This document shows, piece after piece, positions 39,629 through 50,752 of a stretch of 64,000 bases of DNA. Source of the stretch: Patescibacteria group bacterium (GTDB taxonomy: Bacteria; Acidobacteriota; Polarisedimenticolia; Gp22-AA2). A program made the position numbers and the translations under genes. The DNA lies in NCBI GenBank assembly GCA_035638115.1, contig DASRAN010000007.1, positions 5,215 through 69,214 on the forward strand, in the 5' to 3' direction. Position 1 is the stretch's first letter. Each line of letters starts with the position of its first letter. The notes under the pieces were generated by a model that saw only the letters and a program-made list of their open reading frames with translations, had not been told where the DNA came from and did not search any database.

Positions 39629-42600
39629 CTACGCCGCCTTCCCGAAGTCGGTTGGGATAGCGAACGACCTAATACGACGGTAAAGCTTCTGGCGATTCCA
39701 TCCGATAAATCTGGCAGCCTTCGTCTTGTCCCCTCGAAACCGGCGCAGGGCATCTTCGATCATGATCTGCTCGCCCGTCTTTTGAGCATTAACACGACCT
39801 CGTACATCGCGGACACCACCGATCGAATCCAAGCCCTCGTGTGAACCTATGACTTCCGGCCTGGAGCAGACAAGACCTGGGCGACCTGAGTCCGCAGACC
39901 CTGCAAGTGAAGGAAGTGTGTCAGGAAGGTCAGCGATAGTAATGACCTCGCGCGGATTCACAACCATAAGGCTCTCTATTAGGTGTTCAAGCTCACGCAC
40001 ATTGCCAGGCCAGGAGTACGAAAGTAGAGCCTCAAGGACACCAGGACCAAGCTCTCGCGGAGGCGTGTTTGCGTGAGCTTGTCGACTTAGAAACTCCGCG
40101 ACCAAAAGCGGAATGTCTTCCCTTCGCTCACGAAGTGTTGGCGCAACGATCCCGATGACGTTCAAGCGATAAAACAGGTCTTGTCGAAATCGTCCCTGAG
40201 CTATGAGCGAAGAGAGGTCTGCGTTGGTGGCAGCGATAACCCTAACATTAACCCGACGCGTTTGGTTCTCTCCCAACCGGCGAATCTCACGCTCTTGCAG
40301 AACACGCAGAAGCCGTGACTGCAAGTTGATCGATGTATTCGCGATCTCGTCAAGAAAAAGCGTCCCACCGCTTGCCTCTTCAAGCAACCCTACGCGATCG
40401 CGGTCCGCCCCGGTGAAGGCGCCACGTCGGCATCCGAACAACTCGACCTCAAGTAGGCCCTCTGGAAGGGCGCCACAATCAACAGTCAAAAACGGACCCT
40501 GGCGACGCGCACCATTCGCGTGTATTGCTCGGGCAATAAGCCCCTTGCCAGTCCCGCTTTCTCCGGTGATGAGAATTGTACTGTTCAAGTCGAGTACACC
40601 TGCGATAGTCTCATGCAACCGACGCATAACAACGCTTGTTCCTATAAGTTCCGGGAACCGACTTGCGGCCTGACGTCTGAGTCGAGAATTCTCTTCACGC
40701 ATTTGGCCGAACACACGAGCGTTCGCAATTGCGATTGCAGCTTGACTTGCGAACGATTCAACAAAGGTCCGGTCCTTGTCCGTGAACTTCTGAGCATTGC
40801 TCCGAGTATCGAGGTAGATGACCCCCAGTACCTCATCTCGAGACTTCATGGGGACGCACAAAATAGACCTAATCTCCCGAACGATGATGCTGTGCACCGA
40901 TGCAAGCGAGGGATCCTGACCCACGTCAGTCGAGAAAACGATGAGCCCTTGTTCTGCGCGGCGCAGTACAGATCGACTAAACGTTGTCAAGTCCTCCAGG
41001 TCTGTGTTCCCTATTCCTCTTGCGCAGGAGACGCGCATCTGTCCGTCCGTAGAGGACTTCAGAAACATGATTCCTCGTTCTGCCCGAATGCTGTCAATCG
41101 CTAGGTCAAGTATCCGGCCGAGTAGTGCATCTAGGTCGCGAGTAGAAGCGAGCTTCTGTCCGATCTCGCTCAGAGCAGCCAGCATTTTCCGGGAAATCAT
41201 CTCGCTTCGACGCAACGTAGCGGTGTTGAACCGTGAGCGACGTCCGTATTCACGCGCTAGTTCACGATAGTGAGCGAGTACCAGGGAGACGTGAGGCGTG
41301 GAGAGAAACGAGCGTCGGAATCGAGAATCACTTATGTCTTGCGAGACCTCCCGAAGAACGTTGGTGGCCCTACGCAGATACCATAAAGCACGAGACAACG
41401 ACAGTGTGCGCTCATGCAGTGTTGCTAGCAACGCAAGAGATTGCCAGGTAACATCGCGATTACGTGTCTCGTGAGCAATGGAGAGGGCATCCAGAGCGCA
41501 CGCGATAGCGTCACGTGGTTGTCCGACCGAAAGCAGCAGTGATGCTCTTATGAGGAGGCACTCTGAGTGAACTGATCTCAGCCCAACGCGCTGCGCCAAG
41601 CGTTGCACACGCGCTAGCTGGGCCATGTGTTGGGGCAAATCTACGCCCATTTCCACAGATAACAACGTGAGCGTAGTCTCAGCCTGGATCCAAATGTCAT
41701 ATGGTGCCGGCGCACGATAGGTCGAAATGGCCGTCTTGAGTCGTTCGATAGCCTCGGAGGAAAGACCGAGTCCGGATTCGTTGATGGCATGTAAGCGGTG
41801 TAGTTCAAGAAGGGACTGGTGGAATCGCATTTCGAGTGCAAGGCGAATTGCCTTTGTAATTACTCGCTTGGCCAAGGTATAGGCCCCAACAGCTACGAGC
41901 GAGTATGCCCATGTGGTCAGGTAAAGAATAGTTAGCGAAGGTATATTGTGAAGTTCGGTTCTCGCTCCGAGGCGTGAGAGGAGGGAGAGAGCAGATCCGG
42001 GGTAGCCCCCACGAACGAGGACCTGGGCCTGATTAAGATGGGCTATGAGTGCGTGGTGCTGGTCGCCCGAACGGCGAAACTCGGCAGCAGCAATGGCATT
42101 AAGTCGAATAGCAGGCTTCAATGCGCCCTGTGCTCGAAACGTCTCGCCTGCATTTACAAAGACGGTCCAACGGAGGTGGGCGAGTGATAACTCTCGGCTC
42201 AACGACCGTGCTGTTCGATACTGATCTCGGGCAGCGCTGTACCTACCAACATCAGATAGCAGGATTCCCGTATTTAGTACGGCCGTTGCGAATGCTTGCC
42301 AATTGCCAGACTGTTTAAGGAGGCGAGCTCGCCGCTGCTCGTATTTCAAGGCAAGCCTATATGTTCCTTCTCTCCAGTGGGCAGAGGCGATGGCACGTAG
42401 GGCATCTACGGCATATGACAACTCGTGTGTTCGCCGAGCAGCGGCAAGGGATCTGAACAGTACACGTCGACCACGATCCCTGCGTTCCAACCAACAGAGC
42501 CCGTCTCCTATGATCGCAAGAGCTTGCACGGCCCGCCCACTGTAGCCATTTATTCTACAGAGTCGGAGGGCCCTGCGCGCCTGTAGGATGCCTAAGGCGT

Positions 42601-48500: not shown

Positions 48501-50752
48501 TCGCTCTCGGGCATCAGCGTCAGGGCGCGCTTCAGGAAGGCGCTCTCGCCGAGCGGATCGTGCAGCGCCGCGGCCCGGTGCGCCGCGCGCACCAGGTACT
48601 CGATCGCCTCCGGCCGGGAATCGCAGGCGACGTAATGGCGCGCCAGGTCCTCGGTGACGTCGTCGAGCGCTGAGGCGTAGTGCGCCACGAGGGCGGCGGC
48701 AGCGGCGCGATGCAGGACGCGGCGGCGGGCCGCCGGCAGGGCGCCGTAGATGGCGGTGCGCGCGGTCGCCTGCGAGAGCGACACCCAGGGCCCGCCCTCG
48801 CTCTCCCAGTCGATGGTCACGAGATGCAGCGCCGCCAGCGACTCTGCCGCGTGCCGCGTCTTCTCGGCGGTCCAGGCGGAGCGCGGCAGCTCCTCGAGGG
48901 CGCGGGCGAGAAGGGTCATCGGCACGGGCCGGGCCAGGACCGCCAGCATGCGCGCCGCGAGCGCCTGCTCGTCGCGCAGCGTCTCGATCTGCCGCAGGAC
49001 CAGGCCGGCGAGCGACGCCGGCAGCGGCAGGTCGGTGCCGGGAGCGATCGGACAGGTCCAGGTCGCGCCGCGGCGCGCCAGCAGGCCGGCGGCGAACAAC
49101 CCCTTGAGGATCTCCTCGATGTGCAGCGCCGCGCCGCCGGTCTTCTCGAGCAGCAGCGCCGCCAGCGCGCGGGGGGGCTCGGCGAACGGCAGCATCGAGA
49201 CCAGCAGGTCGGTCGTCTGGGAGGCGTCGAGCGGCGCGAGGGCCAGATGCTTGAGACCCGAGCGCTCCTGCAGCCGCGACAGGCGCCCGCCGACGGCACC
49301 GCCCGTCGCGGCGCCGCCGGCCGCGGCGCCGTCGCGCAGCGTGCCGATCACCAGCCATCGCGGGCGCTCCTCGCGCAGCAGCAGGTGCTCGAGCAGGTCG
49401 AGCCCGGCCGCGTCGGCCCATTGCAGGTCTTCGAGGACGAGGACACCGGGTCCGTCGCCGGCGAGGTGATCGAGACACGCCGCGAGGCCGGCCCGCATCT
49501 CGGCCTTGTCGAGCACGCCGCGCGCGCCGCGTGCGTGGCGGCCGAACACCTGGTCGAGCACGTCGGCGAGCGGCGCGGGCATCGAACCGGCGGCGCGGGC
49601 CGTCTTGAGGAGATCGGCGAACGGCTGCAGCGGGCCGCCGGTCTCGTGGCAGCGCGCCGCGAGGGTGCGCCAGCCTTCGAGCTGCAGGTCCTGGCCGAAC
49701 TCGCGGACCAGCCGGCTTTTCCCCGATCCCGGCGGGCCGCTGATCATCATGACGCGCGGGGCGAGCGCCTCGCCGGGGCTCGCGGCGGCTCGTCCGCGCG
49801 CCCGGCCGCGGCTCGAGAGCGGCCGCCGGCCGAGCGGCACCGCCGCCGCGTGCCCGGCCAGCGCGAGACGCAGGGTCTCGAGGACGCTCTCGCGCCCGAC
49901 CAGCCGTCCGCTCGACACCCAGCTCGCGAAGGTCTCGGGCGTGTCGATCGGCCGAGGCGGATCGATTCCGGCGTTGAGCAGGAGGAATGCGGCGCCGGCG
50001 GAATCGGGGCGGGACTCCGGTTCGCGCGCCATCAGATCGACGACGAGACGATTGCGCCGCCCGGAGATCGAGCGGTCGAGGGTGACGGGAGCGGGCGCCG
50101 CGCCTTCGAGGATCGCCGTCACCAGGCTGCCCGGGGTCGGCGCGTCGTAGGGACGGCGGCCGGCGAGCACCTCGTAGAGGACGACGCCGAGCGAATAGAG
50201 GTCCGACCGCGCATCGGGCGCCGTCCCCGCCAGGCGCTCCGGAGCCAGGTACTGCAAGGTGCCGCTGGCGCCGGCCTCCGAGCCGGCCGCCAGCCGCTGC
50301 GCCAGGCCGAAATCGAGCAGCTTCACCTGGAACGCCGGCGTCACCCGGATGTTGTGCGGCTTGATGTCGTTGTGCAGCCAGCCGCGCTCGTGGATGTAGT
50401 CGAGCGCGCGCAGGCACTGCGCCACCAGGTCGTCGAAGCGGGCGATCGCCTCCTTGCGTCGCAGCGCGCCGAGGTCGTGCCCCTCGACGTACTCCATGGT
50501 CAGAAACGGAAGACCCGAGTCCTCGACCCGTCCGAAGTCGAACACCTCGGCGAGATTTGGATGACGCAGGCGCGCGAGCGATCGGAATTCGCCGCGGAAT
50601 CCTTCGATGGCGGCCGGATCGGCGAGCCCGGCGCGCAGGATCTTGATCGCGACTTCGCGGCGCGCCTGATGCCGGTCGCGCGCGAGATGGACCTCGCCCA
50701 TCCCACCGCCGCCGAGGCGACGCACGATCTCCCACCGTCCGTTGACCAGCAA
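45506..50752 (-). CDS. Giant sigma54 EBP: Ser/Thr kinase - P-loop NTPase (STAND-like) - TPR - GAF - AAA+ - HTH
   Basis: [29 protein letters not shown]; GPPGSGKS and VLEDLQWAD; TPR-like repeats; GAF; [51 protein letters not shown] start inferred from a GAGGG RBS. Confidence 0.9.

Follow-up and report, generated by a model that had tools for sequence, protein, structure and literature searches.

Signalling by peptides is well understood in Gram-positive bacteria and barely known in the diderms. In the RRNPP systems (Rap-Phr, NprR-NprX, PlcR-PapR, Rgg-SHP, and AimR-AimP) the gene of a Sec-exported pro-peptide lies beside that of a cytoplasmic regulator built of helical repeats; in the polymorphic pherotype loci, such as agrBDCA of the staphylococci and comQXP of Bacillus, a hypervariable 3' part of the peptide gene and an adjacent sensor gene carry discordant alleles between conserved flanks. 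The GAF-type enhancer-binding proteins (EBPs) NifA, NorR, and FhlA join a GAF domain to a Sigma54_activat domain with its GAFTGA motif and to a helix-turn-helix (HTH) of the HTH_8 type, and they act from upstream inverted-repeat enhancers on a -24/-12 promoter. PknK and MalT are regulators of the STAND (signal transduction ATPases with numerous domains) type, and fusions of kinases to EBPs are reportedly noted in myxobacterial genome papers. Here, we analyze a locus in which likenesses to these systems come together. It lies in a 64,000-nucleotide stretch (hereafter the window) of contig DASRAN010000007.1, from a member of the Candidatus Polarisedimenticolia (Acidobacteriota), and consists of a gene for a small exported peptide placed between the genes of two giant EBPs, EBP1 and EBP2. 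Acidobacteria are abundant in soil, and their regulation is almost uncharacterised.

The elements of this locus follow one another on the minus strand, on which EBP3, its control sites, and the gene of a 122-aa protein described below also lie: EBP1 (45506-50752), a series of enhancer repeats, a sigma-54 promoter (45188-45203), the peptide gene (44850-45122), an intrinsic terminator (44803-44822), and EBP2 (39629-44755). A preliminary description had listed both EBPs, the repeats, the promoter, a 90-aa signal-peptide open reading frame (ORF), and the terminator, and all of them are found in the sequence; it had further proposed that the exported peptide is sensed by the tetratricopeptide repeat (TPR) region of an adjacent EBP that drives the peptide's own promoter. 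On sequence grounds, we consider the core of this wiring, the activation of the peptide gene by EBP1, to be very probable. The best explanation of the whole, which we advance tentatively and with somewhat less than even confidence, is a lineage-specific sigma-54 relay around a small exported peptide, with a feedback cue acting on EBP2. The source is a metagenome-assembled genome (MAG) of 3.25 Mb that is 73% complete, and all statements of genome-wide uniqueness refer to this assembly; it contains rpoN itself (Sigma54_DBD match on contig C93, 212.7 bits).

The AIWG peptide gene, its promoter, and EBP1

The order EBP1, GTCTCA/TGAGAC repeats, promoter, and peptide gene recurs in more than 20 loci of at least 10 genera, all within one family of the Candidatus Polarisedimenticolia. 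The loci were drawn from ENA forest-soil contigs (L003, L006), from JGI (L004, L098, L099, L100) and NCBI/ENA (L101, L102) records, from species representatives (L022-L034), and from several short contigs. The expectation that a small signal-peptide ORF with a -24/-12 promoter would be conserved beside homologous EBPs has held good in more than 20 independent loci, each time behind an EBP1 orthologue, and EBP1 is present wherever the peptide gene is found. Those neighbours that are conserved all encode regulators (an HD-GYP/GAF/GGDEF protein, EBP1, EBP2, and a third activator, EBP3); near the peptide loci compared, no gene for biosynthesis, immunity, or export is conserved, nor any for a radical-SAM enzyme, a cyclase, a protease, or a transporter. 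A locus of the Polarisedimenticolia type also occurs in records titled "Verrucomicrobiia bacterium" and "Candidatus Cryosericum sp." (L025, DASRAU010000027; L029, DASRJX010000134), labels that look wrong.

Directly after the EBP1 stop lies the distal enhancer, the inverted repeat GTCTCA-N11-TGAGAC (45447-45469). Each of 17 loci has it exactly once, without exception in the interval from the EBP1 stop to the promoter of the peptide gene, and in an alignment of eight intergenic regions (where it reads GTCTCA-N12-TGAGAC) its half-sites are invariant and its spacer is variable. The proximal enhancer, AGTCTCA-N6-GTCTCGCGAGAC (45371-45394), has three half-sites, includes the 12-bp palindrome GTCTCGCGAGAC (45371-45382), and is invariant in the eight loci. 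Besides the repeats, the alignment contains an invariant block that takes the form GATAAC-N3-GATAAC in the window (45400-45414) and TAAC-N4-GATAAC in its relatives and may be the site of an architectural protein; two more blocks, the promoter, and the 5' untranslated region are invariant too. In nine distant loci there are 3-7 GTCTC/GAGAC half-sites per 440 bp, as against about one in the background. Both GTCTCA-N11-TGAGAC and GTCTCGCGAGAC have a single occurrence in the assembly, at this locus, and such confinement of an enhancer to one genomic site fits a dedicated circuit.

The enhancers stand 150-270 bp upstream of the sigma-54 (-24/-12) promoter TGGCATCGTCGTTGCT (45188-45203), which itself lies 81 nt before the peptide ATG. 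The pattern TGGCAY-N5-TTGCW has one match in the 64 kb, namely TGGCAT-N5-TTGCT, where 0.02 would be expected; the promoter lies 80-81 nt 5' of the ATG in the window, L003, L004, and L006 and is present in all the other loci. Beyond the peptide gene, both a scan and a folding prediction give the intrinsic terminator, with eight G-C pairs, a 4-nt loop, and a T-rich tail; its hairpin and T run are kept in two closely related loci (L007 and L008) despite surroundings that cannot be aligned. The peptide gene is predicted to be monocistronic.

EBP1 is a cytoplasmic protein of 1748 aa that strings together a Ser/Thr kinase, a STAND NTPase, helical (TPR) repeats, a GAF domain, a sigma-54 AAA+ domain, and an HTH_8. 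Its Pfam domains are Pkinase (residues 8-250), AAA_16 (331-469; E-value 4.9e-24, with the Walker A GPPGSGKS at residue 339), TPR_12, GAF (1274-1410), Sigma54_activat (PF00158, 1439-1605), AAA_lid_14, and HTH_8. The PF00158 match has an E-value of 2.4e-69 in EBP1 and 5.9e-65 in EBP2, and the GAFTGA loop lies at residues 1514 and 1445, respectively. The kinase is complete (Gly-loop, VAIK lysine, catalytic HxD...N, DFG, and APE are all there), and its fold in an AlphaFold model is nearest to that of PknB (target-normalised TM 0.8, 36% identity). In this model of residues 1-1200 (pLDDT 78.7) the kinase is followed by an NTPase of alpha/beta fold and then by approximately 26 repeat helices with a pLDDT of about 90. 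Kinase matches dominate the fold search with the model, which gives no information on the sensor part, and a PDB sequence search returned no match for the nucleotide-binding oligomerization domain/sensor part. The start codon is the TTG at 50752 with its GAGGG Shine-Dalgarno sequence, in agreement with the MLVNGR start of the orthologues; a longer ORF reaching 52096 was discarded, its first 448 codons being an Arg/Ala/Pro-rich off-frame sequence.

The preliminary description likened the TPR region to the peptide-binding repeats of the RRNPP regulators. That part of the proposal has not stood, as the helical repeats belong to a P-loop STAND/PknK-like module, and direct RRNPP-like binding of the peptide by the TPR sensor now seems improbable. 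The output module, in turn, reaches the cut-off of no named NCBIfam family, its best domain match being NifA. Relatives with the fused architecture are held in the public protein collection under generic names ("PknK", from JGI, and "Nif-specific regulatory protein"); among the EBP1-like matches in other phyla, the majority are without the sigma-54 module, and the remainder showed no promoter with a small ORF downstream. The EBP1 recognition helix (SRAT-F/L-FRK) is conserved across genera, as are the GTCTCA/TGAGAC half-sites. In five relatives (L004, 2987-4270; L098, 135-2117; and L100-L102) the HD-GYP (HD_5)/GAF/GGDEF gene lies 5' of EBP1, a possible link to cyclic di-GMP; the window has no such gene at that place, and a phosphodiesterase-TPR gene on the plus strand (51731-55369) abuts EBP1 instead.

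The peptide precursor (44850-45122) has 90 aa and comprises a Sec signal with predicted cleavage after AIA and before APH, a helix (FGFLQVLMQF), a G/T/S linker, and ATWGGGGRCGLGGC. It has 12 close relatives at 50-86% identity and more distant ones behind the EBP1 orthologues of other genera, and its ratio of nonsynonymous to synonymous divergence (dN/dS) is 0.16-0.21; we regard the ORF, from these comparisons, as a real gene and the founder of a previously unnamed family, here called AIWG. Searching with a profile built from 18 sequences yields at least 135 proteins, each annotated as "hypothetical", and the family has no match in Pfam, NCBIfam, or the PDB. Its members share a Sec signal ending in A-x-A before A-P, a short amphipathic helix, a linker, and 1-8 copies of D-G-A-I-W-G-G, amounting to 282 motifs in 120 proteins. 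Tandem arrays of 2-8 units are found in 64 of the 120; the other 56 have a single unit, and 54 of these end in a C-x2-6-C loop. The net charge is 0 to +2 and the mature size 34-85 aa. In the AlphaFold model of the window peptide (pLDDT 52.7) only the signal helix and residues 40-49 are structured, so that the peptide is modelled as mostly disordered. The family is confined to one GTDB family, in which it occurs in 13 of 29 genomes (10 of 18 genera), versus none of 90 genomes from elsewhere in the class; a pattern scan of the species-representative genomes found no members, and the whole-genome profile search did recover them. Two tandem AIWG genes with differing Cys-loop tails are present in L024 (13794-14410), in the very similar L025 (13783-14397), and in G002 and G003; EBP2 is absent there, and insertion sequence (IS) fragments and a methylase gene lie downstream.

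Some members of the family are nearly all repeat, with as many as eight copies of SAIWGGKD, and such tandem near-identical units with conserved flanking residues would be expected of a multi-core precursor like those of the ribosomally synthesized and post-translationally modified peptides (RiPPs). The DGAIWGG units would then be excised and modified, for example at the Trp, by enzymes encoded elsewhere, to give a signal or an antibiotic. The predicted disorder of the precursor would suit this reading, and some RiPP clusters are known to be accompanied by a regulator of the kinase/STAND type (the domain match to NCBIfam TIGR03903 is below threshold). Nonetheless, the neighbourhood has no conserved gene for a radical-SAM enzyme, a cyclase, a protease, or a transporter, and 56 of the 120 members would have just one unit to release. 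Moreover, the precursor begins with a typical Sec signal and not with a leader, so that export would precede the action of any cytoplasmic enzyme. We thus hold such processing to be improbable.

EBP2, EBP3, and the low-GC segment

EBP2 is a 1708-aa paralogue of EBP1 with an HTH type of its own. A sigma-70-like sequence, TTGACC-16-TACATT (44765-44792; one found in a consensus scan versus 0.3 expected), is the candidate promoter, and its TTCTTGAC is conserved in L007 and L008. Pkinase, GAF, Sigma54_activat, and HTH_8 pass the Pfam cut-offs; the TPR matches are marginal (TPR_12 at 30.9 bits against a cut-off of 30.1, with no single stretch passing) or below it (TPR_19, TPR_MalT). The window's allele has an eroded STAND Walker A, which most EBP2 alleles keep, and an eroded kinase Gly-loop; its GAF, AAA+ (with GAFTGA), and HTH domains are intact. 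The kinase, with its degenerate Gly-loop and a catalytic N changed to H, retains K39, E60, D135, and D159, which are invariant across alleles, and its activity must be regarded as uncertain.

The preliminary description had remarked on an AT-richer spacer behind EBP1. The low GC content there is confirmed; it is not, however, a property of the spacer alone, since the whole of EBP2 shares it (53-58% GC versus 70-76% in the flanks). The resulting stretch, 39.5-45.5 kb (6 kb, 55.3% GC), is the largest of its kind in the assembly and near its lowest in GC, the yardstick being the 0.5th percentile of the 1-kb windows of the assembly (59.3% GC). At third codon positions the GC content (GC3) is 0.54 in EBP2 and 0.75 in the peptide gene, as against 0.92, a host-like codon usage, in EBP1 and 0.93-0.94 in nearby ABC-transporter genes. 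The codons TTA/ATA/CTA occur 11/21/33 times in EBP2 versus 0/0/2 times in EBP1, and AGA is likewise nearly absent from EBP1 and the ABC genes. No large gene with a lower GC3 than EBP2 was found in the assembly, and in every lineage examined (the window; L004, 10400-15493; L018, 10326-15419; L098; L100-L102) the GC3 of EBP2 is 0.54-0.69, versus 0.88-0.94 in its neighbours.

A chimeric assembly is an unlikely source of the low-GC segment, as high-GC flanks are present on both sides in independent assemblies. Recent horizontal transfer was rejected too, because the GC dip occurs at every related locus and the EBP1 and EBP2 trees are congruent at depth. An escape from GC-biased gene conversion, a throttling of translation by rare codons, or the binding of an AT-preferring silencer are possible causes of the AT-richness of EBP2.

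The gene has also diverged fast. Between the window and L004 the synonymous difference is 0.62-0.89 (saturated) along EBP2, 0.19-0.47 in EBP1, and 0.31 in the ABC ATPase gene; between L003 and L006 the dS of EBP2 is 0.62 versus 0.14-0.15, with a dN/dS of 0.19. EBP1 is 82-84% identical where EBP2 is 57% identical, and in the trees of nine complete loci, congruent for the two proteins, the EBP2 paths are 2.5-4.3 times longer. Congruent trees, a low dN/dS, and long paths together indicate that EBP2 is an old, vertically inherited gene that is under purifying selection and evolves rapidly. A pseudogene it is not: an intact ORF of about 1700 aa is kept in 11 loci, at the dN/dS just given. Public annotations nevertheless shorten EBP2 to 492-1192 aa (L004, L098-L102), though the frame is open for about 1700 aa, and the atypical codon usage seems to mislead the gene finders. 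A profile of the N-terminal 1200 residues found about seven end-to-end relatives among 1.84 billion representatives, probably because of these shortened gene calls; a systematic annotation error is thereby exposed, which has left this N-terminal sensor nearly missing from the protein databases. As a rare vertically inherited gene of low GC3 amid high-GC3 neighbours, EBP2 should be useful for testing biased gene conversion against selection as the force that keeps GC high.

Closer strains reveal a second kind of change. Between L007 and the window the identity is 95-100% from 45411 to about 44931, a stretch that includes the enhancer, the promoter, and about the first 64 peptide codons, and it then collapses. 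At the N-terminus, the EBP2 proteins of L007 and L008 share 34-36% identity with that of the window, which makes them as distant as the EBP2 of other genera, and the C-terminus of the L008 EBP1 is 97% identical to the window's. The window's EBP2 is nearest to the alleles of L003, L004, and L006 (54-62%), whose flanks are more distant. From these alignments, EBP2 and the last third of the peptide gene appear to have been swapped as a unit between nearly identical strains; the close strains showed only two allele classes. Diverged alleles that do not recombine with each other would escape GC-biased gene conversion and drift to AT, which would tie the composition of the segment to this exchange. 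Of about 15 MAG contigs that extend as far as the EBP1 stop, six (L020, L022, L029, L030, L034, and L038) end 0.1-1.8 kb past it, at the start of the low-GC segment, and strain heterogeneity there would produce such breaks.

A fast-evolving gene that has the lowest GC3 of any large gene and is replaced between close strains might also be the product of an arms race. Immune systems commonly employ STAND NTPases equipped with repeat sensors, and the remaining low-GC islands of the genome resemble restriction-modification or mobile DNA. In this case EBP1 and EBP2, as STAND-type sensors, would recognise an intruder or the effector of a competitor and respond, via their sigma-54 output, by inducing a harmful peptide, and the conflict would account for the hypervariability and low GC of EBP2. 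We consider this very improbable: the locus is vertically inherited with fixed chromosomal neighbours, its likely activator, EBP1, is well conserved where EBP2 is not, PADLOC gives generic kinase and AAA+ domain matches only, and the usual effectors, such as a nuclease or an NADase, are absent.

A probable second tier of regulation includes EBP3 (28623-29957), a sensor-less sigma-54 activator of about 444 aa. In alignment its HTH, GDKTRAARFIGWSRPKLYRR, matches that of EBP2 (GWNRQKLYRR) and not that of EBP1; alignment and NCBIfam domain matches give it, like EBP1 and EBP2, an AAA+ domain with a GAFTGA loop and a C-terminal HTH. The gene is monocistronic and convergent with the next one. Its sigma-54-type promoter, TGGTATCGGCGTTGC (30006-30020), is conserved in L018, L100, L101, L103, and L105. 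Upstream lies an enhancer of its own, TGTGACA-N23-TGTGACA, with 30-bp phasing (30139-30175), the sole such cluster in the genome. In four genera this arrangement occurs once per genome, consistently some 155 nt 5' of TGGTAY-N5-TTGC and an EBP3 orthologue, and it never occurs in the reversed control. EBP3 lies directly downstream of EBP2 in G025, L100, and L101, and in G025 the TGTGACA enhancer directly follows EBP2. No further target of the TGTGACA enhancer was found, and the 73%-complete genome contains no further sites that would define a regulon for either enhancer.

These comparisons divide the earlier proposal that an adjacent EBP drives the peptide promoter. For EBP1 it is likely to be correct. 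EBP2, by contrast, has another recognition helix and is absent from three lineages (L024, L025, and L027) that keep the promoter, the repeats, and the peptide gene; genes for UbiD, a metallo-beta-lactamase-fold protein, and a methylase, together with IS fragments, lie downstream in its stead. For these two reasons EBP1 is likely to be the sole activator of the peptide promoter, and the action of both EBPs on the peptide enhancer is disfavoured. The HTH common to EBP2 and EBP3 and the separate TGTGACA enhancer suggest two tiers, EBP1 acting on the peptide gene and EBP2, with EBP3, acting on EBP3.

Several other features accompany the segment. An ABC importer pair (34937-37987; a 575-aa BPD_transp_1 permease and an ATPase with an AAA_assoc_C domain) lies beside the locus in the window, L003, L004, and L006 and not in other genera, and no binding-protein gene was seen adjoining it. 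Just 3' of EBP2, a gene (39087-39455) for a 122-aa cytoplasmic protein with no family match is kept in the window, L004, and L006; its high GC places it outside the variable segment. Elsewhere in the genome, the low-GC islands include C2:104241-109426, with a C5-cytosine methyltransferase-like gene and two large ORFs (GC3 about 0.70), and C18:20629-23268, an 880-aa ORF with a GC3 of 0.58 and no assigned function.

The role of the peptide

The circuit that we tentatively favour would work as follows. EBP1 would integrate cytoplasmic inputs by means of its kinase, an ATP-driven STAND/TPR switch, and its GAF domain; it would then bind the GTCTCA/TGAGAC repeats, oligomerise, and open the sigma-54 promoter. 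The precursor would be exported and its signal cut after A-x-A, and the product of about 60 aa, or shorter DGAIWGG pieces of it, would act outside the cytoplasm. EBP2, from its own sigma-70-type promoter, would form with EBP3 a second tier on the TGTGACA enhancer. The peptide would serve as a secreted cue whose level feeds back on EBP2, either directly or through an importer or membrane sensor, and EBP3 would amplify the response. The circuit is compact and testable, with a single activator, a single mapped candidate enhancer, and a single promoter for one exported product of about 60 aa.

A signalling role of whatever sort for the peptide is possible, though we would put it on the doubtful side. 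In its favour are the purely regulatory conserved neighbourhood, the dedicated enhancer, the multi-copy precursors, and the joint exchange of tail and EBP2. Other observations speak against it. Sec export in diderms, such as this host, reaches the periplasm only, and EBP1, EBP2, and EBP3 are all predicted to be cytoplasmic and without a membrane segment. No peptide importer is conserved at the locus; the genome has three SBP_bac_5 genes (binding proteins of the oligopeptide permease, or Opp, type), all unlinked to it. The DGAIWGG core is nearly invariant across genera, whereas known pheromones differ, and EBP2 is dispensable in the three lineages that lack it. The peptide tails are 67-79% identical to that of the window and do not track the EBP2 alleles: the co-variation of peptide C-termini with the sensor that had been anticipated is not evident, as L008, relative to the window, combines a tail of 78% identity with an EBP2 N-terminus of 36%, and L004 a tail of 79% with an N-terminus of 60%. 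With EBP1 and EBP2 trees congruent at depth, fast evolution alone could account for most of the EBP2 divergence. Lastly, an amphipathic helix and Trp/Gly-rich repeats would equally suit a membrane- or surface-active effector.

This last point leads to an appreciable rival, to which we give a little over one chance in three: the peptide may be an effector and nothing else, a membrane-active, antimicrobial, or surface/matrix peptide released by EBP1 once its inputs in the cytoplasm concur, with EBP2 and EBP3 forming a separate tier, downstream or parallel, that does not sense it. Its amphipathic helix, Gly/Trp-rich units, small disulfide loop, charge, and mature size all accord with such a role, and the invariance of the core motif across genera is what a physico-chemical function would predict. 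Sigma-54 promoters are silent without their activator, and a costly or toxic product would be kept off in this way; a weak lead is that a literature string search with GAIWG returned only designed lytic peptides. Yet the effector reading leaves the joint exchange of the peptide 3' part and EBP2 unexplained. No immunity, export, or modification gene is conserved adjacent to the peptide, the neighbours being all regulators, and Pfam, NCBIfam, and the PDB reveal no similarity to a bacteriocin, a chaplin, or any other named family. As for the class II bacteriocins in particular, neither a linked immunity gene nor a dedicated export system or leader was found, and there was no family match.

At the other extreme stands a full pheromone relay, in which the variable Cys-loop tail would be read, either directly or following import, by a hypervariable EBP2 sensor and EBP2 would fire EBP3; the cassette of tail and EBP2 would then define pherotypes, or kin groups, and EBP2 would have escaped GC-biased gene conversion. 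This elaboration we think unlikely. If it were true, unlikely as that is, it would amount to a sigma-54-based peptide pheromone system in a Gram-negative soil lineage, with kin groups defined by cassette alleles.

Comparison with known systems

The relay with feedback on EBP2, our preferred reading, can be set against the systems with which we began. The earlier claim that this architecture had not been described remains unchallenged: literature searches found no study either of it or of the peptide. Giant kinase-STAND-GAF sigma-54 activators are catalogued in databases, no study of them was found in the searched literature, and a concrete candidate target can now be assigned to them.

The RRNPP systems share with the locus its layout only, a Sec pro-peptide gene beside a cytoplasmic helical-repeat regulator, to which may be added that the regulator here probably drives the peptide's own promoter. 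The usual RRNPP receptor has about 300-450 aa and couples a TPR domain to an HTH or a phosphatase; the proteins of this locus, with 1708-1748 aa, are 4-5 times larger, match no RRNPP family in Pfam or NCBIfam, and have a sigma-54 output. Furthermore, the host is a diderm, there is no linked Opp, and the peptide core is invariant rather than strain-specific. The likeness to agrBDCA and comQXP, a hypervariable peptide 3' part and adjacent sensor with discordant alleles amid conserved flanks, is similarly limited: only two allele classes occur here, the tails differ modestly and are not tied to EBP2, and there is neither a processing enzyme nor a membrane receptor.

Multi-copy precursors, such as the fungal ustiloxin-type and the cyanobactin precursors, have an N-terminal signal followed by tandem near-identical short units, as does the AIWG family. 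In opposition to these, the AIWG genes have no linked processing or modifying enzyme, and about half of the members consist of one unit and a Cys loop.

There remain the relationships of the regulators. EBP1 resembles PknK and MalT in its PknB-like kinase, its AAA_16 P-loop with Walker A, and its approximately 13 helical hairpins, but its output is a sigma-54 AAA+ motor and not a LuxR-type HTH or a kinase alone, and the EBP2 of the window lacks the P-loop. Compared with NifA, NorR, and FhlA, the EBPs of this locus carry some 1250 additional N-terminal residues (the Hanks-type kinase, the STAND NTPase, and the long repeat sensor), and their target is the gene of a small exported peptide rather than a metabolic operon. 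An EBP of the NifA/NorR type with a sigma-54 target and an N-terminal part similar to PknK/MalT are the known components of this locus; the peptide family and the unusual, probable second tier are the new ones.

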